64,000 bases of DNA from an uncultured Gammaproteobacteria bacterium (GTDB lineage Bacteria > Patescibacteriota > Patescibacteriia > Magasanikbacterales > UBA922). Below, one piece after another: positions 3,979 through 56,856 of this stretch. Each line of letters opens with the position of its first letter. Within the stretch, counting starts at the first letter, position 1. The stretch lies in NCBI GenBank assembly GCA_964612105.1, contig CAZTEU010000001.1, positions 147,437-211,436 of the forward strand, written 5' to 3'. Under the pieces are notes generated by a model, which had not been told where the DNA came from, made no database searches, and saw only the letters and a program-made list of their open reading frames with translations. The position numbers and the translations under genes are program-made.

Positions 3979-3998
3979 TAACACCAGAGACAAACACA

Positions 3999-4036
3999 AG
4001 CGCGCCACCCAGTAAAACCAGATGGCGCGTTTTTTG
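3999..4036 (+). terminator. rho-independent terminator (GC-rich stem)
   Basis: GCGCGCCA...TGGCGCGT hairpin followed by TTTTTTG. Confidence 0.6.
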
Positions 4037-4059
4037 TCTTGCTCCTAGGTCGTGTTTTG

Positions 4060-4506
4060 CTATGAGTCTATAGCCATCACGACAACCCTTCCACTGTCCT
4101 CAATGTGTGCAAACACATGGAGAATATCCTCCAAGCCCAGATTGCGTGCTCTCAGAGCCTCGCCTGCCTTGCACAACTCTTTCAGATGAAAAAGATTATC
4201 CTCTCCCTCATCACGACCACACTTCTCCCTACCACCACCGTAGGCATCACAGTCTGTATGCTGTACCAGCATAACCTTCGTAACACCACGCATAGCAACA
4301 GAGATATCCTCAATATCACGAAACAGCCTAGAGTTCGGATCCAGCAGGTCTTTTGGGCCTCCTGGAACGGAAATAAGGTCGTGATCGTGTGGCACCCTCT
4401 CCTTACCATGGTGCCTGTACATGATGAAGTCCTTCAGCGGACCATTCAACCGGAAGTCCATGCACCGTACGACAAGCCATTCACATTGTGTTTTGGGATT
4501 CTCCAT
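4060..4506 (-). CDS. beta-class carbonic anhydrase-like protein (Cab-type), paralog 1
   Basis: GC-rich ORF of 148 aa. VVRCMDFRLN (C-x-D-x-R) plus VQHTDCDAYGG (H-x-x-C) matches the zinc-ligand arrangement of minimal beta-CAs such as M. thermoautotrophicum Cab (ITCMDSRL / HTDCG), but the Gly after the Cys is replaced by Asp. A strong SD GAAGGAGGG sits upstream. Confidence 0.45.
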   Translation of the reverse strand: MENPKTQCEWLVVRCMDFRLNGPLKDFIMYRHHGKERVPHDHDLISVPGGPKDLLDPNSRLFRDIEDISVAMRGVTKVMLVQHTDCDAYGGGREKCGRDEGEDNLFHLKELCKAGEALRARNLGLEDILHVFAHIEDSGRVVVMAIDS

Positions 4507-4533
4507 CCTACCCTCCTTCTGTGCGCTTCTGCG

Positions 4534-4965
4534 CTAGTTGTCCCCGAGATAATCCACCAATCTGCACACAAACTCCCCATTATCCATTTTGTGTGCAAAA
4601 ACCATTAGTACTTCTTCCAGCTCTGGGGTTGTCTGCTTGAGTAGTATTCTGGCATGTTTGAGTATGCTGGTGTTGGCTTTCAAGCTGTCATCTCTGATTG
4701 GATGTGGGTAGTCACAGTCCACATGATGGACAATCATGATCTTGGTCACACCATAGCTTATAACGAGCGTATCCACGACCAGCTTTTTCATCGCAGAAAG
4801 ATTGGTAATCATCTGCAAAGGACCACCATGAACAGAAACTTGGTGGTACTTATGAGTGATACCAAGATGCAAATTCATGCTGATAAAGTGGTGAATTGCC
4901 AGATTGAGTCGTGAATCGACACAGCGAATCACTGCCCACCTGCTCCGAGCGTTGGAATTATCCAT
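4534..4965 (-). CDS. beta-class carbonic anhydrase-like protein, paralog 2
   Basis: 143 aa with VIRCVDSRLN and VHHVDCDYPH. It is clearly paralogous to 4060-4506. GC-rich, with SD AGGGAGGACAG upstream. Confidence 0.45.
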   Translation of the reverse strand: MDNSNARSRWAVIRCVDSRLNLAIHHFISMNLHLGITHKYHQVSVHGGPLQMITNLSAMKKLVVDTLVISYGVTKIMIVHHVDCDYPHPIRDDSLKANTSILKHARILLKQTTPELEEVLMVFAHKMDNGEFVCRLVDYLGDN

Positions 4966-5049
4966 ACTGTCCTCCCTGGTTCTGTTAGTGCCACTTGCAG
5001 TGGCCGTCTATAAATGAGACAATAGCATGGAAATAATAAGAAATCAAGT

Positions 5050-5802
5050 ATGATAAAAATTAACAGACCAATTGTTTTTTTTGACTTAGAAACAACAGGT
5101 GTAGATCCTTTTACAGACAGAATAGTGCAAGTTGGTGCTATAAAAATACACCCGGATGGAGAGAAGGAAGAGTGGAATCAGTTAATTAATCCACAGATAG
5201 CAATTCCACAGGTTGTTATAGACGTTCATGGTATTACAGATGAAATGGTAAAAGATAAGCCAACTTTTGCTGAGTTAACTCAGAAGTTCGCTGAGTTCTT
5301 TCATGAAGTTGATTTAGGTGGTTATAATGCAAAGAATTTCGATATACCAATGTTAATGGCTGAGTTTAACCGTGTAGGACTAGAAATGGATTTAGAATCT
5401 GTAAAGATTATAGATCCAATGGCTATTTTCCGTAAAAAAGAACCTAGAACATTAGAGGCTGCTTACAAGAAATATTGCGATAAGGAGTTGGTAGATGCAC
5501 ATGATGCTATGGTGGATATAAGAGCATCTATAGAAGTTTTTGAGGGTCAGATGAAGCATTATGATGACTTACCAGATAATCTAGATGAAATGCATGAATA
5601 TTGCTTCCCAGAAGACCCGGATGCGTATGATGCAGAAGGAAAACTAAAGATAATAGATGGAGAAATTACAATTAACTTTGGAAAGCACAAAGGAAAACCA
5701 CTACAAAGATTAGCTGTAACAGATCCTGGATATCTAGAATGGATACTAAATGGAAGCTTCTCAGAAAAAGTTAAGAAGGCAGTAAAGGATCACAAAAAAT
5801 AA
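5050..5802 (+). CDS. DEDDh 3'-5' exonuclease (DnaQ/epsilon-like)
   Basis: Exo I motif FFDLETTG, plus later D and H-x4-D motifs (DAHDAMVD). 250 aa. Confidence 0.75.
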   Translation: MIKINRPIVFFDLETTGVDPFTDRIVQVGAIKIHPDGEKEEWNQLINPQIAIPQVVIDVHGITDEMVKDKPTFAELTQKFAEFFHEVDLGGYNAKNFDIPMLMAEFNRVGLEMDLESVKIIDPMAIFRKKEPRTLEAAYKKYCDKELVDAHDAMVDIRASIEVFEGQMKHYDDLPDNLDEMHEYCFPEDPDAYDAEGKLKIIDGEITINFGKHKGKPLQRLAVTDPGYLEWILNGSFSEKVKKAVKDHKK

Positions 5803-5804
5803 AA

Positions 5805-5830
5805 AAGTCCCCTTATGGGGATTTTTTTAT
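5805..5830 (+). terminator. rho-independent terminator
   Basis: GTCCCC-TTAT-GGGGAT hairpin followed by a T-run. Confidence 0.7.
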
Positions 5831-5931
5831 ATCTCACTATTTACAATTTTTTATAAAGAGTGAGGTTCTGGCGACGCATGCGTATGCAATTGTCGCCATT
5901 GTGAACCCTCCCTTAGATGTAGCCGAAGCTA

Positions 5932-6777
5932 CTATCGTTTGCCCTTCTCCTCCTCAGTGACATCGAAGGGCTTGATGTCGTTGAAGCCGGTATCCGCCTT
6001 GGTGCCCGGCAAGTTATTCACCACACCGACCTTGTTGAGCTCAGCGAGCGACACGTTGCCATAGCAGGTCGCTTTCACCCTTCTCTCCAGATTCATCCCG
6101 TACCCTTTCACGGTGGGAATATCCGAACGGCTCATGGTCTTGCAGAACTGCTCAACATCTCCTGGTCGGACATACTTGTGGTCTTTCTGGATGTACTTGA
6201 CATCGTGATTGACTGCATACGCCCAGTGTGCCGTCGTGAGAAACATCCTGGATAAAACACTCTCACTGGGCGATACCTTCTGCCAGGATTCGACCTTCTC
6301 GGCCAGCTTGTCCCATGCGACCATTTTGTGATAGGTATCGAGAACAACGCCGGTCACCCGTGTTGTGTACCTTCCGTCCCACGACATGTGTGGTTTGGTT
6401 GGATCTGGGATGATCTGCTTGACCGTGTTCGCATACCACGTCAAGAGGACTCTCCCCTTGCTGTAGTACTGACTCGGGACAACCTTGCCCTCCTCATCTT
6501 TCCGGAGCATCGTCCCAGCATCCGCACTGATCATGACCGAGATGCACTCAGCCACCTTCGGAGCGTGGAGTTGGTACTTCAGGACAGACTGGATCCGCTT
6601 GCTATACCCGTAGAACGCCACCTCCTTCGAGGGAACCTCGAAGTCAGCCAGGTTCATGTTGACGCACTGAAGCGTCTTGTTTGTGCCGTAGCCACCACCC
6701 ACCTGGGCAGCGCCACAGCCGATCATCAGGAACATCACGACGCCCATCAACAGGGCACCGAACAGTTTCTTCTTCAT
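5932..6777 (-). CDS. lipoprotein, hypothetical (GC-rich island)
   Basis: Start moved to the ATG at 6777 (MKKKLFGALLMGVVMFLMIGCGAA), which sits behind SD GGAGGAAG. The N-terminus is a signal peptide with lipobox LMIGC. ~56% GC in an AT-rich backbone. No recognisable domain. Confidence 0.6.
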   Translation of the reverse strand: MKKKLFGALLMGVVMFLMIGCGAAQVGGGYGTNKTLQCVNMNLADFEVPSKEVAFYGYSKRIQSVLKYQLHAPKVAECISVMISADAGTMLRKDEEGKVVPSQYYSKGRVLLTWYANTVKQIIPDPTKPHMSWDGRYTTRVTGVVLDTYHKMVAWDKLAEKVESWQKVSPSESVLSRMFLTTAHWAYAVNHDVKYIQKDHKYVRPGDVEQFCKTMSRSDIPTVKGYGMNLERRVKATCYGNVSLAELNKVGVVNNLPGTKADTGFNDIKPFDVTEEEKGKR

Positions 6778-7008
6778 CTTCTTCCTCCACACGGATTACG
6801 CCCCGTGATGCGCCTTTGGTCGACAGCTTATCGACACGGAGTATGATATTTAATCAATTAAATACCCCACTCTATGCCCAAATCTGACCGCGTATAATAG
6901 CACATTATTCCACTTTTGTCAAGTTAATCCACATATCCTTAGTTTATTATAGTACGAGTGCCTTTTTTTTGCTATAATATAACAAAATACTCCCCTGAGT
7001 TAATTTTT

Positions 7009-7564: not shown

Positions 7565-10138
7565 ATGTTTCCTTTGTTGCAGTTTGTCGCGACTCCACAA
7601 CCTACAGAGATAAACCCTTTTGGAAATGAGGTCCTTTTAATTGTACTACTTGCTTTTATTGTAGTTGGAGTAATCGTTGGAATCTCATATATTCTTAGAG
7701 CTGTATTTCGCTCACAATCCAGATCTTCTAAAGCGTTCAATCGTGCAGTATTAAAAGTCCTAGTACCCAAAGAAAGAAAATCTGAGGGACAAGGTGGGCA
7801 GGTGGGTCAAGATGACAGGCTAGAACAAATCAAGGAGGAGATTGCTATTACAGAGAATTTCTTTGCGTCTATTGCTGGACTTAGGGCGGGAAGAGGTATT
7901 ATGAACTGGTTACGTGGTCGTGTTGATCATTTTTCTTTTGAGATAGTTGTCCACAACCAACAAATCTACTTCTATGTAGATTTACCTGTTAAAAGAAGGC
8001 AGTTTTTTGAACAGCAAATACATGCACAATTTCCTCATGCACAGATTGAAGAAATTACAGATTACAATATATTTTCAGAGAAGAGTGTAATAGTGGGCTC
8101 ATATCTAACAAGTGCACAGAGAAACGAGTTTCCCTTTAAGACGTACACTAGTCAAGAATCAGATCCGATGTCTGGAGTACTCAATGCACTTTCCAAAATA
8201 AATGAGCCAGGAAACTCAGCTGCTATACAGTTTGTTGTACGAAGCTCCAATAAAGTATGGAGGCGCAAGGGTGTGAAATTGGTAAGAGATGTAAAGAAGG
8301 GTCGCAAGTTTGAAAAAGTTGCTGCACAATCTGGATTTAACAAAGCACTTGGTCATTTTGGTGATTTCATAAGTGATCATATTTTCCATAAACCAAATGA
8401 TCCAGGTAAGGAAGAAAAATCATATCAGTTATCACCAATGGAGGAGGAAATGCTTAAAGGAATAGAAGAAAAACTAAGCAAAGGAGGAATGGATATTACT
8501 ATTCGTATACTAAGTGTCTCAAATAACGAAGAAAGTGCGCAATTGGGGTTAGATAACTTGATAGCAAGCTTTAACCAGTACAATTACTATAGGTATGGTA
8601 ATAGCTTTAAGGCAATAATGCCTCGTAATCAGTCGCTGATTATACGTGATTTTATATATCGCACATATGATGAGAAAAGAGGTTTTGTGGTAAATACAGA
8701 AGAACTTGCCTCTATGTGGCACCTTCCTCTACATTCTACAGAGGCGCCAAATATTAAGTGGTTGTCTGGGCGTAAATCTCCCCCTCCAGCAAACCTTCCA
8801 AAAGAAGGGCTAAAGCTTGGTTATGTGCAATACAGGGGTTCCAAGACAGATGTATTTATGAAAGAGGCTGACAGAAGGCGTCATCTGTATGTAATTGGTA
8901 AGTCTGGTAGTGGTAAATCTGTCTATATAGCTAACTTAGCAATACAGGACATAAAGGATGGTAAGGGGGTTGGTGTAATAGATCCACATGGTGATTTGGT
9001 AGAAGATATATTAGCTCATGTACCGAAGGAGCGTGCAGATGATGTTGTTGTTTTTGATCCTTCAGACATGGACAGGCCTATTGGTCTTAATATGTTGGAG
9101 GCAGGAACAGAAGATCAGAAAGATTTTGCTGTACAAGAAATGATATCTATATTCTATAAGCTATTCCCTCCTGAGATGATAGGTCCAATGTTTGAACATC
9201 AGATGAGAAACGTAATGCTTACACTAATGGCAGATATTAAGAATCCTGGAACTGTTATAGATATACCTAGAATGTTTACAGATGATAACTATGTAAAGGT
9301 ATACCTGAAAAACCTACGAGATCCTGTTGTTAGAGCGTTCTGGGAAAAAGAAATGGCAAAGACGAGCGACTTCCACAAATCAGAAATGCTTGGATATCTT
9401 GTCTCTAAGGTTGGTAGATTTGTAGGAAATGAGATGATGAGGAATATCATGGGACAACAGAAGTCTGGTTTTGACTTCCGTGAAATAATGGACAACAAGA
9501 AAATATTGTTAGTTAACCTTGCAAAAGGTAAGACTGGTGAAATTAATGCTAAACTGTTAGGTCTTATTGTTGTAGCAAAACTACAGATGGCTGCCATGGG
9601 AAGAGCAGATATGGCTCAGGAGGACAGGCATGATTTCTACTTATATATAGATGAGTTCCAAAACTTTATTACAGATTCTATATCTACAATACTTTCTGAG
9701 GCTAGAAAGTACAGGTTAGATCTTATTATTGCTCATCAGTACATGGGTCAGTTGGTAGACGATAAAGGAAGCGCAGACGTACGTGATGCTGTGCTTGGAA
9801 ACGCAGGAACACTTTGTGTTGGTCGTATTGGTCCTGATGATGCAGAAATACTTGCGAAAGAATTTGCTCCTGTATTTGGTTCTTATGACCTACTCAATCC
9901 CCCACCATTTTCTTATTACACTAAATTACTTATTGACGGAAAGGCAAGTAAACCTTTTAACATGGGAGCATACCCTCCTATATCCGGCAATAAGGACCTT
10001 GCAGACGCAATTAAACAGCTCTCTCGCCTAAAATATGGACGTGACAGAAGCATTGTTGAAGAAGAGATAATGGACAGAACAAAGCTTGGAGAGCCAGAGA
10101 TGCAGGGTAAAACAGACGCAGCAGAAGCAACACTATGA
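7565..10138 (+). CDS. VirB4/TrbE-like type IV secretion ATPase (HerA-FtsK superfamily), fused N-domain + ATPase
   Basis: 857 aa. N-terminal TM helix. Walker A YVIGKSGSGKS, Walker B LYIDEFQNF, then EARKYRLDLIIAHQY (an R-K...TQ/HQ-type motif). The N-terminal half is homologous to ORF 16508-17920 and the C-terminal half to ORF 57697-59496. Confidence 0.7.
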   Translation: MFPLLQFVATPQPTEINPFGNEVLLIVLLAFIVVGVIVGISYILRAVFRSQSRSSKAFNRAVLKVLVPKERKSEGQGGQVGQDDRLEQIKEEIAITENFFASIAGLRAGRGIMNWLRGRVDHFSFEIVVHNQQIYFYVDLPVKRRQFFEQQIHAQFPHAQIEEITDYNIFSEKSVIVGSYLTSAQRNEFPFKTYTSQESDPMSGVLNALSKINEPGNSAAIQFVVRSSNKVWRRKGVKLVRDVKKGRKFEKVAAQSGFNKALGHFGDFISDHIFHKPNDPGKEEKSYQLSPMEEEMLKGIEEKLSKGGMDITIRILSVSNNEESAQLGLDNLIASFNQYNYYRYGNSFKAIMPRNQSLIIRDFIYRTYDEKRGFVVNTEELASMWHLPLHSTEAPNIKWLSGRKSPPPANLPKEGLKLGYVQYRGSKTDVFMKEADRRRHLYVIGKSGSGKSVYIANLAIQDIKDGKGVGVIDPHGDLVEDILAHVPKERADDVVVFDPSDMDRPIGLNMLEAGTEDQKDFAVQEMISIFYKLFPPEMIGPMFEHQMRNVMLTLMADIKNPGTVIDIPRMFTDDNYVKVYLKNLRDPVVRAFWEKEMAKTSDFHKSEMLGYLVSKVGRFVGNEMMRNIMGQQKSGFDFREIMDNKKILLVNLAKGKTGEINAKLLGLIVVAKLQMAAMGRADMAQEDRHDFYLYIDEFQNFITDSISTILSEARKYRLDLIIAHQYMGQLVDDKGSADVRDAVLGNAGTLCVGRIGPDDAEILAKEFAPVFGSYDLLNPPPFSYYTKLLIDGKASKPFNMGAYPPISGNKDLADAIKQLSRLKYGRDRSIVEEEIMDRTKLGEPEMQGKTDAAEATL

Positions 10139-24148: not shown

Positions 24149-24964
24149 TTATCCCTTCTTGAGACGCAGAATTCGGTCCGTGCTGTGGAAGTTGTTGTCG
24201 AGATTGTCCCAGCGCTGTCTCCAGTGATCCGCGTGCCAGTAGACACAGCTGACGAGCTTGTTGTGGTCAGGGTTACGCCAGTCTGTGAAGACAAACACTA
24301 CCCTGTCTCGGAGCACGATGGGGATCTCGTCTTGGTGCTCCAACAAGTGCCGACCATGCTTTTCGCCGAGATGGGCATACCCAATCGTGGCACGCGCGAC
24401 CATGGCTTCGCCTCTGACACTCTCCTCACTATCTTCCAGGAAGTTGATAATCTCGTAGGTGCGGTCACCAACGGTCATCTCGGTCGGGAGAGCATCCTCT
24501 TCCTGCTTGAGACGCAGGATTCGGCTGATATTGCGGAACTGGTAGCCAATCCATTGCCATTGTCTCATCCAGTGTTTGCCATTCCAGTGTATGGTGCAAA
24601 TGTCCCCAGGATTGGCGTAATCGCGACGCCAGTTCGTGAAGACGAAGGTATTACCCCGTAGCTCGACTGGAATCTGGTGTTGGTGTTTCAGCAGATGTTC
24701 GCCTGCTTCCTTATTGGGGTTTGCGTCAATCTCGCTCACACGCCTCACCACTGTCTGACCATCTACCGACCCCTCTCCTTCCTCGTGGAACCCGAGAATC
24801 TCGTAGGTGCGGTCACCAACGGTCATCTCCTGAGGAAGGGAATCCCGGAAGAGCTTGTCGCAGAACCTCTTGACCTTCCCGGTGTTTTCCGGGTTGATCA
24901 GGTCTTCGAATCTCTTTTCACCCAACTGCTCCCGCAGATGAGCCAATTTACGCAAGGTGCCCAT
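24149..24964 (-). CDS. hypothetical protein with two tandem ~115-aa repeats (GC-rich island)
   Basis: PQEMTVGDRTYEILGFHEEGEGSV...FVFTNWRRDYANP...RILRLKQ is repeated as PTEMTVGDRTYEIINFLEDSEESV...FVFTDWRNPDHN...RILRLKK. ATG at 24964 sits behind SD GGGTGAGGAGAG. The track's GTG at 24970 is rejected. Confidence 0.5.
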   Translation of the reverse strand: MGTLRKLAHLREQLGEKRFEDLINPENTGKVKRFCDKLFRDSLPQEMTVGDRTYEILGFHEEGEGSVDGQTVVRRVSEIDANPNKEAGEHLLKHQHQIPVELRGNTFVFTNWRRDYANPGDICTIHWNGKHWMRQWQWIGYQFRNISRILRLKQEEDALPTEMTVGDRTYEIINFLEDSEESVRGEAMVARATIGYAHLGEKHGRHLLEHQDEIPIVLRDRVVFVFTDWRNPDHNKLVSCVYWHADHWRQRWDNLDNNFHSTDRILRLKKG

Positions 24965-25198
24965 TTGCACCTCTCCTCACCCTTTTGTACAAAGGGTTCA
25001 CTCCTCACCAACATGACGAAGAGGAAGACGAGTTGGTGTTCAGGTCTTCTCTTTGCATACCTAAGTAAATATACACAGAGAAGACCTAAACCATAGTATT
25101 TTAAAGAGCTATTTGACTGGTCAGATTAACATTAAATCACTATTTTGTCAATATAACCTAATTATATAACATATTTACCTAATTCTAGCTATAAAGTA

Positions 25199-25227: not shown

Positions 25228-25260
25228 ATGCTCACACCCCAAGGGGAAGGAGAGAAAATC

Positions 25261-25767
25261 ATGAGTAAATCACTCAACATCGTCATCACTTCCGACCATG
25301 CAGGTCTGGATATGCGGGCGGCAATCTGCGCTTACCTGCGCAAAGAAGGTCATGCAGTCATCGACCAGGGTCCACAGCCGGGAGAGGTTGTAGACTACCC
25401 GGAGTACGCGGAGGCTGCAGTACAAGCAATGCTCTGTGACATTCCTAGCGATGTGGACGACAGCATCAAGATCGATCTGGTCATCCTCATCTGCGGTACA
25501 GGCATCGGTATGAGCATCGTCGCGAACAAGTTCAGCGGTGTCAGTGCAGCTCTGGTACACGACCATCTCACCGCGAAATTCGCGAAAGAGCACAACAACG
25601 CGAACGTGCTCTGCCTGGGCTCACGTGTGACAGCTGATGTTGTCGCAGTCGACTGCGTTGCCACGTTCCTCGAGGCAAAGTTCGAAGAGCGCCACCAACG
25701 ACGCATTGACATGATCATGGACATCGAGGTGAACGGTTCATGTATCGGATCTTTGATGTCTGACTGA
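25261..25767 (+). CDS. rpiB: ribose-5-phosphate isomerase B
   Basis: MSKSLNIVITSDHAG...CGTGIGMSIVANK matches RpiB/LacAB. Start moved to ATG 25261, 8 nt after SD AAGGGGAAGGAGAG. GC-rich. Confidence 0.8.
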   Translation: MSKSLNIVITSDHAGLDMRAAICAYLRKEGHAVIDQGPQPGEVVDYPEYAEAAVQAMLCDIPSDVDDSIKIDLVILICGTGIGMSIVANKFSGVSAALVHDHLTAKFAKEHNNANVLCLGSRVTADVVAVDCVATFLEAKFEERHQRRIDMIMDIEVNGSCIGSLMSD

Positions 25768-51980: not shown

Positions 51981-52571
51981 ATGAGTTCACGAATAGAGTC
52001 GCCAAGCAAGAAAGACCTCAGAGAGGTATCGAATGCTTTCAAGATCACAGAGAACTGGCCAAAACCTGGTGTTACCTTCCGCTGTGTCAGCGGTGTGCTG
52101 GAGTCACCAAAACTTCGACGAATGATGAACATGGCGCTGTCAAAAAGGATCCAGGAAATGACGCCAGATGTCGTTGTGCTCCTCGATTCACGAGGCTTCC
52201 TGCTCACTCCAGCGGTAGACCTCCTCTGTCTGCCAGTTGTCATGGCGCGCAAGGCTGGCAAGCTACCACCACCATGCGTCGCTTACACTTACGACTTGGA
52301 ATACGGAACAGCGACCATCGAGCTACAGAGGCAGGCTTTCCACAAAACCAGCAGGGATATGGCTTCCCGTGGTATGAGTGGACCACCAAGAGTGGTGATC
52401 GCTGATGACGTCCTCGCAACTGGGGGCACTGTACTGGCAACCAAAACCCTTGTGGAACAGTTGGAATGCACAGTGGCAGGATACGTGTTCATCGCAGAGC
52501 TCAATGGACTTGGAGGGTCAAATAGGCTCGCCACAAAGTCCACACCTGTCGAGTCACTCTTTCGTTTCTAG
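51981..52571 (+). CDS. apt: adenine phosphoribosyltransferase (GC-rich island)
   Basis: PRTase PRPP-binding loop VVIADDVLATGGTV and APRT-like N-terminus ITENWPKPGVTFRCVSGVLESPKL. SD GGAGGG sits 6 nt upstream. Confidence 0.7.
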   Translation: MSSRIESPSKKDLREVSNAFKITENWPKPGVTFRCVSGVLESPKLRRMMNMALSKRIQEMTPDVVVLLDSRGFLLTPAVDLLCLPVVMARKAGKLPPPCVAYTYDLEYGTATIELQRQAFHKTSRDMASRGMSGPPRVVIADDVLATGGTVLATKTLVEQLECTVAGYVFIAELNGLGGSNRLATKSTPVESLFRF

Positions 52572-52583
52572 GGAGGAAGCAAA

Positions 52584-53177
52584 ATGTCCAAGGAAAGAGA
52601 AATCGACCAAATCGATACCCTCCTGACCGCAGAGGAAATCGCAGAGCGTGTTGAGAAGATCGGTAAGCAGATCTCTCTCGACTACAGAGGTAAGTTGGAC
52701 GGCCAACCACTCATCCTCATCTGTGTACTCAAAGGTTCGTTTATCTTCACAGCCGACCTGATGCGTGCCATCGATGAGGACATTCCGGTAATCGTTCAGT
52801 TCATCGCTGTGAGTTCCTACGAGGGGAAAACCACCAAATCAAGTGGTGCTGTTCGTCTCGCATACGACCTCCGTGAAAACATCGAAGGACGAGACTGCAT
52901 CATTGTAGAGGACATCGTTGACACCGGATTGACGGTGAAGTACCTTCTAGATCTGTTTGGGGCACGCAAACCGCGTTCACTGCGAGTCTGTACACTCCTC
53001 CACAAGCCGTCGCGTGAAAAGGTCAAAGTGCCACTGCAATATGTCGGCTACACAATCGAGAACAAGTTCGTTGTTGGTTGCGGTCTGGACTACGACCAGC
53101 TACTACGTGGACGAGGAGACATTGGAGAGCTGGTCTTCAAAGACGAAGGGGAAGAGGGCAGTCCTGAGGGAGGCTAG
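52584..53177 (+). CDS. hpt: hypoxanthine-guanine phosphoribosyltransferase (GC-rich island)
   Basis: LKGSFIFTADL...IVEDIVDTGLTVKYL...LLHKPSR...GCGLDY. SD GGGAGGAAG. Confidence 0.8.
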   Translation: MSKEREIDQIDTLLTAEEIAERVEKIGKQISLDYRGKLDGQPLILICVLKGSFIFTADLMRAIDEDIPVIVQFIAVSSYEGKTTKSSGAVRLAYDLRENIEGRDCIIVEDIVDTGLTVKYLLDLFGARKPRSLRVCTLLHKPSREKVKVPLQYVGYTIENKFVVGCGLDYDQLLRGRGDIGELVFKDEGEEGSPEGG

Positions 53178-54855: not shown

Positions 54856-56697
54856 TCAGATGCAGACCTGGGTAGGCCTTCCAATGGTCTTGTAGAAAAA
54901 CCACTCGATCCCGAATGCACAACCCTTGCCGTTCTTGTAGTCACAGCTCTGATCCTTGGGGTCGCTGTTGTCGCACTCAACACAGAACTTCTGGTTTTTC
55001 TTCTCGGCTGCCCAGTAGACAGTAGCACACTGCTCACCGAACTTTGACCCCTTGCAGTCCTTGTCGGCTCCACAGCAACCAAAGTCCTCATGGTGACATT
55101 TGCCGTTGAGATCACAGTAGTCCGCGGTGCAGACCTTGCCATCAGAGCAGTCCTTGTTGACCTTGCACAGCTTACATCCAGCGATTGGTTTGTATTGACA
55201 CCCATTCGTCTTGTTGCAGGAGTCTGTTGTGCACAGATCCCCGTCATCGCATGACAATTCCTTGCCTGTACAGATACTTCCCTTGCACTTGTCGTTGAGG
55301 GTGCAGACGTTCATGTCTGTGCAAATTGCACCATCGTCCATCGGGATGAAGGTGCACTTGCCGGTCTTCTGGTCACAGGAGTCCTTGGTGCAAGGGTTCT
55401 TGTCCACACACTCCACTCCCATGCCAAGACACTTGCCGTCCTTGCATCCATCGCTGGTCGTGCAAGAATCGTTGTCGTTGCAGTCGATACCATTCTGGGA
55501 TGGTGTGAAGGCACAATCTCCAGTCTTGGAGTCGCAGAAATCCTTGGTGCATGGATTGTTGTCTTCACACACCTTTGTGGTTTTCGTGATGCAGACCCCA
55601 CTGATGCACTTTTCCACAGTGCAGACGTCGCTTTCCTTGCACTTCTTCATCTCTGTGATCTTGCAACCCTTGCTTGTGCAGACCATCTTCTCGATGCACG
55701 ACTGAGCGTCGACTTTGCACTGATCGTGGTCTGGGCTGTGAGCACACTTCCCTGTTCCAAGAACGCACGAGTCGATGGTGCATGCGATTCCATCCTTGCA
55801 GTCGACAGACTCGTTCTTGCACTTGCTGTTGGCTGTGCAGGTGTCGGTGGTGCAGAGGTTCTTGTCATCACAATCACCTGACTTGGTGCACTCGCAAACG
55901 TTGATGCCTTTGGTGCACGTGTTCTTGATGCACTGATGATTGACTGTGCAAGAATCCTCGTCATCGCACTCGACGTCTGTAGAGCAACAGTCCTCGATCT
56001 CCTCGTGTATGCACTCTTTCAAGGTTTCCAAATCGCAGGAGTCTGCAGTACAAGGTTTGCCGTCGTCGCAGGACTTTTGGTTCACAGTGAACACACACTT
56101 CCCGCTCTCGAAGACGCATAGATCGTCTGTGCAATCAACCCCGTCGTCGCAAATGACATTGTCCGTGTTCACACAAAGACTGTCCTGACATACGTCGACG
56201 GTGCAGAGATTCTCATCCAAATCACACACATTGCCAATCGACTTGTACACGCAACCCTTGCCTGGATCGCATGAATCGTCCGTGCAGACATTGTCGTCGT
56301 TGCAAACCTTCCACGAATCCATGTCTCCGACACACTTCCCGCTTTCGAGATCGCACTTGGAAATCTCGGTGCAGGAGTTGTTATCATCACAGGTCGCGGT
56401 GTTTGGCATATGCACACAGCCGACATCTTCTTCGCAGACATCTTTGGTGCAAATCTTGCCGTCGTCGCATTTGTCGGGGACGTAGTCGCACTTGTTGTTG
56501 CTGTTGCATTTGCCAATCCAGCAACTCTTGATGCAATCATCCTTCGTCTCACAGAAACCAGGAGGAAGTTGTGTATCCTCAGAGCCCTGATCTGCAAAGG
56601 TAGCAGCGTCAGCCGGCCCTTTGACCGAATCTTCGCTACATGAAATTGAGAGGAAAATCACCACGAACATCGTGATGATGAGGTCCCGGTTCATCAT
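54856..56697 (-). CDS. giant cysteine-rich repeat lipoprotein/secreted protein (GC-rich island)
   Basis: Start at MMNRDLIITMFVVIFLSISC, 7 nt after SD AAGGAG. Dozens of repeats of the form C-x-D-x-N/D-x-C-T-x-D-x-C-D-x-x-T/S-G-x-C, about 18% Cys. Resembles Myxococcus-type cysteine-rich repeats (inference). Confidence 0.65.
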   Translation of the reverse strand: MMNRDLIITMFVVIFLSISCSEDSVKGPADAATFADQGSEDTQLPPGFCETKDDCIKSCWIGKCNSNNKCDYVPDKCDDGKICTKDVCEEDVGCVHMPNTATCDDNNSCTEISKCDLESGKCVGDMDSWKVCNDDNVCTDDSCDPGKGCVYKSIGNVCDLDENLCTVDVCQDSLCVNTDNVICDDGVDCTDDLCVFESGKCVFTVNQKSCDDGKPCTADSCDLETLKECIHEEIEDCCSTDVECDDEDSCTVNHQCIKNTCTKGINVCECTKSGDCDDKNLCTTDTCTANSKCKNESVDCKDGIACTIDSCVLGTGKCAHSPDHDQCKVDAQSCIEKMVCTSKGCKITEMKKCKESDVCTVEKCISGVCITKTTKVCEDNNPCTKDFCDSKTGDCAFTPSQNGIDCNDNDSCTTSDGCKDGKCLGMGVECVDKNPCTKDSCDQKTGKCTFIPMDDGAICTDMNVCTLNDKCKGSICTGKELSCDDGDLCTTDSCNKTNGCQYKPIAGCKLCKVNKDCSDGKVCTADYCDLNGKCHHEDFGCCGADKDCKGSKFGEQCATVYWAAEKKNQKFCVECDNSDPKDQSCDYKNGKGCAFGIEWFFYKTIGRPTQVCI

Positions 56698-56856
56698 CTC
56701 AGCTCCTTCTTGACTGCACTTGGCAGTACTGTTGCGCACACGAATACAAATGGTCAGCTTGAGCTAACACACACAATATCCATAAGATACTCTGTGAGCT
56801 AGCCCAAAGCATAGTATAAAAAGAACGCTGTTGTTCCTATTATAGGAAAACAGCTA

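Follow-up and report, generated by a model that had tools for sequence, protein, structure and literature searches.

A tandem pair of divergent mini beta-carbonic-anhydrase-like genes, apparently horizontally acquired, in a low-GC genome of the candidate-phyla-radiation type

Introduction

Two short, adjacent genes near one end of a 64-kb window (the whole stretch of DNA analyzed here, 64,000 nucleotides) encode proteins with the ligand arrangement of beta-class carbonic anhydrases (beta-CAs). The window comes from a small, low-GC genome of the candidate-phyla-radiation type, and the two genes lie in a patch of foreign composition. A sequence-only reading of this DNA had drawn attention to their small size and to an unusual residue beside one of the zinc ligands. 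The locus raises the question of whether such proteins are carbonic anhydrases, hydrolases of a related substrate, or paralogs that no longer catalyze a reaction, and of how the pair came to reside in this genome.

Results and Discussion

The gene pair and its surroundings

Both genes are on the minus strand. Gene B (4534..4965, 143 aa) is the upstream and more divergent of the two and contains the segments ...VIRCVDSRL... and ...VHHVDCDYPHP..., and gene A (4060..4506, 148 aa) follows it downstream, with the corresponding segments ...VVRCMDFRL... and ...VQHTDCDAYGG.... Each reading frame is preceded by a Shine-Dalgarno (SD) site, read from the sequence, 4 nt before its ATG: GGGAGGA in the case of B (4970..4976, minus strand) and AAGGAGGG in the case of A (4511..4518, minus strand), the latter within the 27-nt spacer that separates the two genes. 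The proteins align over their full length at 35% identity (BLASTP, E 5e-22), and at the DNA level 74% identity persists over 42 nt around the HxDC motif. Judged by these alignments A and B are true paralogs, and the sequence-only reading was right to describe them as an adjacent pair of 148 and 143 aa with strong SD sites.

The pair is flanked by a PLDc_N gene on one side and by an exonuclease gene of the DnaQ/RNase_T type (5050..5802, plus strand; PF00929) on the other. A GC-rich hairpin of 13 pairs with T-runs on both strands (4001..4029), recognized by a terminator scan and in the sequence itself, is a probable bidirectional terminator that would stop transcription of the B-A operon and of the PLDc_N gene convergent with it. 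The 84-nt divergent intergenic region between B and the exonuclease gene (4966..5049, minus strand with respect to B-A) would accommodate the leader and promoter of the B-A operon as well as the exonuclease-gene promoter. No sigma-70 consensus promoter was called in this region; within it, a perfect palindrome of 15 nt, GCCACTTGCAGTGGC, lies at 4990-5004. An Rfam search in and around the island, the intergenic region included, returned nothing credible.

A plus-strand open reading frame of 167 aa (4105..4608) was set aside as an antisense shadow of A and B without homologs. PHROGs and PADLOC gave no match for A or B, and for that reason a phage or defense reading of the pair was dropped.

A and B are the only genes inside the compositionally foreign patch (3985..5010, without strand; GC ~0.46-0.50). 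In the composition profile, GC across 4000-5000 is 0.46-0.50 versus 0.32-0.36 in the flanks. The GC3 of A and of B is 0.52, versus 0.23-0.33 for neighboring host genes, the comparison set being the genes for L9, Era, the exonuclease, PLDc_N and a T4SS coupling-like protein, together with two large housekeeping-size ORFs further along the window. The GC-rich, foreign-looking island of the sequence-only reading is borne out by these values. Its placement upstream of the DnaQ-like exonuclease holds only in part: the exonuclease gene does adjoin the island, but it is divergently transcribed, has host-like GC, and lies outside it.

Assignment to the Pro_CA_2 family

The sole Pfam match of the two proteins is PF20393 (Pro_CA_2, "Putative carbonic anhydrase"), with 28.5 bits for A and 18.6 bits for B, both of which fall below the gathering threshold of 30 bits. 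Neither protein matched PF00484 (Pro_CA) at E values up to 10, and NCBIfam gave them only a chance-level match. When a profile of A and B was used for an exhaustive HMMER search, it recovered 252 representatives at E < 1e-3 (13 of them at < 1e-10), nearly all of 130–150 aa, and 134 of these were combined with A and B into a family alignment of 136 sequences. PF20393 is matched by all 136 aligned sequences. The Pro_CA match that the sequence-only reading proposed to look for is lacking in A and B themselves but present, weakly, among their aligned relatives, with 67 of the 136 sequences also matching PF00484 (best E 5e-7). Against a family HMM built from the 136 sequences, A reaches 118 bits and B reaches 72, both values being inflated by the presence of A and B as the first two rows of the alignment. 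Within the 64-kb window, no further member of the Pro_CA_2 family was found besides A and B.

We are highly confident that A and B are beta-CA-fold members of PF20393. By sequence they are divergent proteins of a family that had already been catalogued and in which so small a size is the rule. The earlier claim that they are shorter than known beta-CAs is correct relative to solved structures, of which the shortest matched chain has 164 aa, but not relative to their own family. The pair resembles other PF20393 proteins in length, in starting at strand 1, in the C-x-D-F-R and H-x-D-C motifs, and in the order of predicted secondary structure elements. Within the family, A belongs to a sub-clade with P0003 (from an Uhrbacteria metagenome-assembled genome, or MAG; 46% identity), L005, P0004-6, and P0009, which is marked by W10, by P-G-G, and by an extra conserved Cys in G-G-R-x-x-C-G-G-x-E (Cys96 in A).

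Relatives of A and B are labeled "hypothetical protein" at NCBI, and one is labeled "carbonic anhydrase" at IMG. A literature search on PF20393, Pro_CA_2, and carbonic anhydrase in connection with Patescibacteria and ATP synthase found no characterization of the family. The name "carbonic anhydrase" is a sequence-based prediction for PF20393 as a whole. The fold, the superfamily, and the Pfam family were already known; the pair is an atypical member, set apart by the rare Gly-to-Asp replacement described below, the loss of His73, the sub-threshold scores, the apparent lateral acquisition, and the tandem arrangement.

Relation to solved beta-CA structures

When compared with the PDB, the family profile matched Mycobacterium tuberculosis Rv1284 (1YLK, 2.7e-6), the Streptococcus mutans enzyme 3LAS (6.5e-6), Aspergillus fumigatus CafC (6JQC, 1e-5), 5ZTP (1.1e-5), and Cab of Methanothermobacter thermautotrophicus (1G5C, 2.2e-5), followed by a CS2 hydrolase (1.7e-3) and a COS hydrolase (3.9e-3). 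In the profile alignments C-x-D-x-R and H-T-D-C-G were superposed exactly. The single-sequence PDB search (phmmer) gave only marginal matches, in which B was paired with two small beta-CAs, 5ZTP and 3LAS. The Cab-type resemblance noted in the sequence-only reading is thus recovered at the level of the family profile. The Cab-type enzymes (clade D, here Cab, Rv1284, 3LAS, and CafC) have the same Cys/His/Cys ligands, the same Asp-Arg dyad, and the H-T-D-C motif type in common with the pair. However, A and B are 16–27 residues shorter, are only 16–22% identical to them, have a C-terminal half that differs at the sequence level, and carry Asp rather than Gly after the second Cys, to which A adds the family-specific A-Y-G-G extension.

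A structural model of A was computed with AlphaFold2 from the 136-sequence alignment (pLDDT 93, pTM 0.88) and was used in place of a single-sequence prediction (pLDDT 35), which was discarded. Its elements follow the order beta1, helix, beta2, two helices, beta3, long helix, beta4, beta5. In a Foldseek search of the PDB, ranks 1-31 were all occupied by chains of the beta-CA superfamily (best E 1.9e-5, TM 0.5-0.65), with only 111–127 residues aligned to the solved enzymes, and a viral structure library gave no significant match. The predicted fold of A is therefore related to that of the beta-CAs, and the beta-CA-like reading of the pair is supported. The model predicts with confidence that A has the alpha/beta fold of the beta-CAs but lacks the canonical N-terminal arm: strand 1 of the model starts at residue 10, and the alignment begins at residue 22 of Cab and residue 37 of Rv1284, leaving the N-terminal helical arm of those proteins without a counterpart. 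In canonical beta-CAs this arm embraces the partner subunit and helps to build the dimer and the active-site entrance.

Active-site residues and proposed function

Five positions are invariant in the 136 aligned sequences (C15, R19, G49, H83, and C86 in A numbering), and all five are kept in A and B, as is D17, which is present in 134 of the 136. Conservation is at least 90% at D17, D43, H73, D85, and Y89, and the family consensus can be written as M-x-H-x-C-x-x-x-V-I-x-C-x-D-F-R ... D-x-x-S-x-A-G-x-x-K ... L-H ... H-x-D-C-G-A-Y-G-G. The zinc ligand triad is C15, H83, and C86 in A and C15 plus the His and Cys of HVDC in B, and the Asp-Arg dyad (D17, R19) lies in RCMDFRL of A and RCVDSRL of B. 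The sequence-only reading had spoken of an altered zinc motif and had singled out the dyad and the third ligand for checking. Both are present in each protein, and the ligands are unchanged; what is altered is a second-shell residue, the one after the second Cys, which is Asp in both (HTDCD and HVDCD). This replacement is as unusual as had been supposed. Position 87 is Gly in 104 of the 136 sequences, Ala in 15, and Asp in three (A, B, and P0028), with Ser, Lys, and Arg also seen in relatives. The equivalent residue of pea beta-CA, Gly224, contacts a bound substrate analogue (PMC5155245).

A second departure from the family concerns position 73, where the His kept in 128 of the 136 sequences is replaced by Arg in A and by Tyr in B. 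The two departures go together across the family, Gly87 being found in none of the 8 sequences that lack His73 versus 104 of the 128 that have it. This pairing suggests that the two positions are functionally coupled or that both were relaxed once the function had changed, and a loss of the ancestral activity from these proteins would be expected to leave such a pattern. Beyond these positions, A keeps C8, D43, K52, D85, and A-Y-G-G (HTDCDAYGG), and B lacks C8, D43 (His43), K52, and the whole A-Y-G-G...C-G-G segment (HVDCDYPHP). The complete family signature, H-x-D-C-G-A-Y-G-G plus D43 and H73, is found in neither. A second metal site composed of the N-terminal H-x-C, D43, and H73 was also considered and was dropped because these residues do not strictly co-occur.

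The explanation that we favor, with about even confidence, is that the locus is a small, horizontally acquired B-A operon in which A is possibly an active zinc hydratase subunit and B its degenerate partner. The two proteins would dimerize and hold one Zn(II) per subunit, as in all beta-CAs, with Cys15, His83, and Cys86 as the ligands in each; the zinc-bound hydroxide, oriented by Asp17-Arg19, would attack CO2 or a molecule isoelectronic with it, for example COS. Of the two subunits, A is more likely to be catalytic, having kept the A-Y-G-G segment and the R-x-x-C-G-G segment of its sub-clade, although the replacement of the substrate-contacting Gly by Asp87 would change its pocket. The Asp87 carboxylate is expected to adjoin the main-chain NH that binds the carboxylate of substrate or product, and would likely weaken bicarbonate binding or add a proton relay. 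Apart from the five core residues, B retains almost none of those specific to the family; it is most likely a partner that binds zinc but is catalytically degenerate, probably within an A-B heterodimer, a reading motivated by the recurrent tandem pairs in relatives that are described below. We infer zinc binding, dimerization, and heterodimer formation for A and B alike. Counting against the favored explanation are the sub-threshold PF20393 score together with the missing PF00484 match, the replacement of Gly by Asp after the second Cys combined with the loss of His73, and the absent N-terminal arm.

It is possible, if doubtful, that A and B are both pseudo-enzymes in which zinc is only structural and which serve as binding, regulatory, or scaffolding modules or are decaying after transfer. 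The loss of Gly87 and His73 from both proteins, in a family where these losses co-occur, is what such a reading would lead one to expect, and it also draws on the further losses in B (C8, D43, K52, and A-Y-G-G), on scores under the Pfam threshold, and on a location outside the ATP-synthase context of the main branch of the family (see below). Yet the five residues of beta-CA chemistry have been kept in both proteins despite 65% sequence divergence, the reading frames, strong SD sites, and terminator are intact, and relatives in which position 87 is Ala, Ser, Lys, or Arg indicate that Gly is not absolutely required.

The same residues bear on the proposal that the pair is not a carbonic anhydrase but a hydrolase acting on COS or CS2, both neutral analogues of CO2, or on some other small molecule. 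The known CS2 hydrolase (3TEN) and COS hydrolase (3VQJ/3VRK) are larger proteins of 201–219 aa, which A and B fall short of by 50–70 residues, and they are more weakly related to the family than are the Cab-type CAs. In these hydrolases, extensions shape a hydrophobic substrate tunnel and higher oligomers. A protein of 143–148 aa leaves no room for the N- and C-terminal extensions that build the CS2 hydrolase tunnel and oligomer, the family profile is closer to ordinary Cab-type CAs, no sulfur-metabolism genes are found near the pair, and a fermentative host with a reduced genome would presumably have no obvious use for COS or CS2. We consider this proposal quite improbable, even though the H-T-D-C motif type is common to the hydrolases and the pair, the sub-clade of A has its extra conserved Cys in R-x-x-C-G-G, and the Asp87 carboxylate, at the site where pea Gly224 contacts a bound carboxylate analogue (PMC5155245), could disfavor anionic bicarbonate.

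If active, A and B would be among the smallest beta-class carbonic anhydrases, and they would show that the fold can dispense with the N-terminal arm and with Gly as the residue after the Cys ligand. The pair is a rare variant, and its main use may be in structure-function work, as a naturally occurring mutant (Gly to Asp, with loss of His73).

Origin of the pair and population variants

The composition of the pair fits gain from a GC-richer Patescibacteria lineage, and A and B were apparently acquired horizontally. The closest relatives, P0003 (46% identity) and L005 (43%), come from genomes of ~53% GC, and A-like genes seem to occur in Uhrbacteria-type genomes of roughly that composition. 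No direct repeats were found flanking the island, and the loci around relatives of the exonuclease (39–47% identical) show no synteny and contain no family member. No sufficiently close genome that lacks the pair was found.

The best match of B anywhere is A. The two proteins have in common several derived characters that are absent from P0003, namely Asp87, the loss of His73, GVTK[VI]M, and L-E-x-x-L-x-VFAH, as well as a 3-residue N-terminal extension. Because A and B share these characters to the exclusion of P0003, we infer that the pair arose by duplication inside the A lineage, after its split from the nearest known relative, and that B then diverged rapidly.

A word-indexed search of 5.8 billion proteins returned only copies that are 98–99% identical, in ENA metagenome assemblies with the same flanking genes. 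Between ~47% and 98% identity, these 5.8 billion proteins yielded no relatives. The pair and its flanks are kept on four other metagenome contigs, three of which were read at the DNA level. The variants comprise 1 SNP in A and 4 SNPs plus one 3-nt indel in B, differences too few for dN/dS to be calculated. As known so far, the pair appears to be confined to a single species-level population, a narrow distribution that fits the possibility, raised above, that both proteins are pseudo-enzymes; the sole indel among the variants, however, is in-frame, which argues against decay.

Tandem pairs and ATP synthase linkage in the family

A genome scan with the pattern HTDCGAYG, using one genome per species, identified 92 relatives, nearly all in MAGs of Patescibacteria. 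The groups represented include Uhrbacteria, Magasanikbacteria, Liptonbacteria, Kerfeldbacteria, Parcubacteria, and Saccharibacteria, and many of the other relatives are labeled only "uncultured Gammaproteobacteria" or "bacterium," record labels that were taken as given. Two family ORFs were present in 15 of the 80 loci kept from the scan (about one fifth). Some 13 of these 15 are unambiguous tandem pairs; the others seem to result from ORF calls that overlap or are split. The upstream copy of a tandem pair is usually the divergent one and the downstream copy a canonical HTDCGAYGG protein, an order that matches B followed by A.

This recurrent pairing of a canonical with a divergent copy points to a division of labor, and it speaks against the view that A and B are simple isoenzymes, each an independently active homodimeric carbonic anhydrase. 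That view can appeal to the complete Cys-Asp-Arg-His-Cys set in both proteins and to the strong SD site that each gene has of its own, but B has lost nearly all other family-conserved residues, including the segment after the Cys ligand, and we regard it as decidedly unlikely. A parallel for the favored combination of an active subunit with a degenerate one exists in the carboxysomal enzyme CsoSCA, whose C-terminal domain (matched as PDB 8THM) is a degenerate beta-CA-fold module paired with an active one. In the present case, however, A and B are separate genes, both have all zinc ligands, and no carboxysome genes are present.

The scan also revealed a linkage to ATP synthase genes. Neighboring genes were grouped by clustering and their identities confirmed by Pfam. 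Upstream DNA was long enough to be informative at 71 loci, and at 37 of these the ATP synthase alpha and beta genes precede the family gene on the same strand; the gene for the epsilon subunit (atpC) is upstream at 32, and at 17 the family gene starts within ~200 nt of the atpC stop codon. Two relatives with other motif variants, looked up independently, lie 4 nt (P0014) and 35 nt (P0022) after atpC. The main branch of the family is thus found after atpC in ATP-synthase operons at about half of the loci examined. Unlike those relatives, the window pair does not follow atpC, and among the window's listed ORFs no ATP synthase operon was noticed. Members of the A sub-clade are stand-alone genes in variable settings, in genomes of ~53% GC, and their genomic context is, on this sample of loci, uninformative.

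The linkage to ATP synthase is the most interesting by-product of the analysis, although it does not apply to the window pair. It hints that, in organisms with a poorly understood energy metabolism, inorganic-carbon or proton chemistry is linked to the ATPase. The wider value of the analysis lies at this family level, in a "putative" mini beta-CA that is largely confined to Patescibacteria. PF20393 proteins could be an unrecognized accessory of the Patescibacteria F-type ATPase, supplying or removing protons and bicarbonate, with the B-A pair as a transferred and uncoupled offshoot. Such an accessory would be co-transcribed from a gene placed after atpC, and a loose analogy exists in the energy-coupled, beta-CA-like DAB complexes; B and A would then have become an obligate heterodimer whose active site has been remodeled to bear a carboxylate and whose substrate or regulatory role is new. 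We consider this scenario improbable. At the scanned loci, the gene that follows the family gene is often one for a UvrD/PD-(D/E)XK helicase-nuclease.

Genomic context of the Pro_CA_2 family

In the main branch of the mini beta-carbonic-anhydrase family Pro_CA_2 (PF20393), the Pro_CA_2 gene of Patescibacteria directly follows atpC, which encodes the epsilon subunit, and closes the F1Fo ATP synthase operon. ATP synthase genes are found upstream at 37 of the 71 loci that were informative; the gap often measures 4–80 nt, and a UvrD/PD-(D/E)XK helicase gene is a frequent downstream neighbor. This arrangement emerged from loci L004–L083 (for example, L007:5518-6411 and L006:4514-5431) as well as L172:714-1389 and L173:548-1452. 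A literature search on the linkage of Pro_CA_2 with the ATP synthase operon returned no reports.

At nine loci (L080:3648-4250, L019:5251-5880, and seven others), the mini beta-CA gene is directly preceded, in the same orientation, by a gene for a protein of ~200 aa. This protein family bears C-P-D-C-x-R and H-x-P-C-G motifs and has no Pfam match. It shows weak similarity (E about 5e-4) with the mini beta-CA proteins and may be an even more divergent paralog.

Residues 73 and 87

In the family alignment A2 (136 sequences, numbered after protein A), loss of the near-invariant His73 coincides with loss of Gly87, the residue following the Cys ligand. None of the eight sequences lacking His73 retains Gly87, which is present in 104 of the remaining 128. 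The two positions should lie far apart within a single subunit; consequently, their coupling might operate between the subunits of the dimer; alternatively, it may be a sign of joint relaxation.

Sequence features flanking the exonuclease gene

The 84-nt spacer separating gene B from the divergent exonuclease gene contains a perfect 15-nt palindrome, GCCACTTGCAGTGGC (4990-5004), a candidate operator or leader hairpin with no match in Rfam. Matches to the Rfam rimP leader occur on both strands at 5763-5856, coinciding with the terminator hairpin 3′ of the exonuclease gene. The scores are weak and sub-threshold (~26 bits, E about 0.3, with the gathering cut-off at 47), and these are almost certainly chance matches.

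GC-rich genes and mobile-element-type neighbors

Besides genes A and B, the window (38% GC overall) harbors several isolated genes of 51–54% GC (GC3 0.55–0.75) at 5932-6792 (−), 24149-24970 (−), 25228-25767 (+), 51981-53177 (+), and 54856-56739 (−). The set consists of a 286-aa lipoprotein-like ORF without a Pfam match, a 273-aa ORF with no match, an RpiB-type sugar-phosphate isomerase, two phosphoribosyltransferases, and a 627-aa protein with Dicty_CTDC repeats. These look like single-gene acquisitions from GC-richer donors, scattered through the host genome.

P0004, a member of the sub-clade of A, is encoded on a 357-kb contig (L164:6001-6405) and is neighbored by genes for a GIY-YIG/T5orf172 nuclease, a PIF1 helicase, a Peptidase_M15 protein, and a DEAD helicase. 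Such genes are typical of mobile elements or phages, a hint that mobile DNA carries this sub-clade.

Near the GC-rich island containing A and B, an 857-aa VirD4/TraG-type coupling-protein-like gene (T4SS-DNA_transf, TrwB_AAD_bind, TraG-D_C) is found at 7565-10138 (+); two related metagenome contigs, L001 and L002, have it conserved at the corresponding place.
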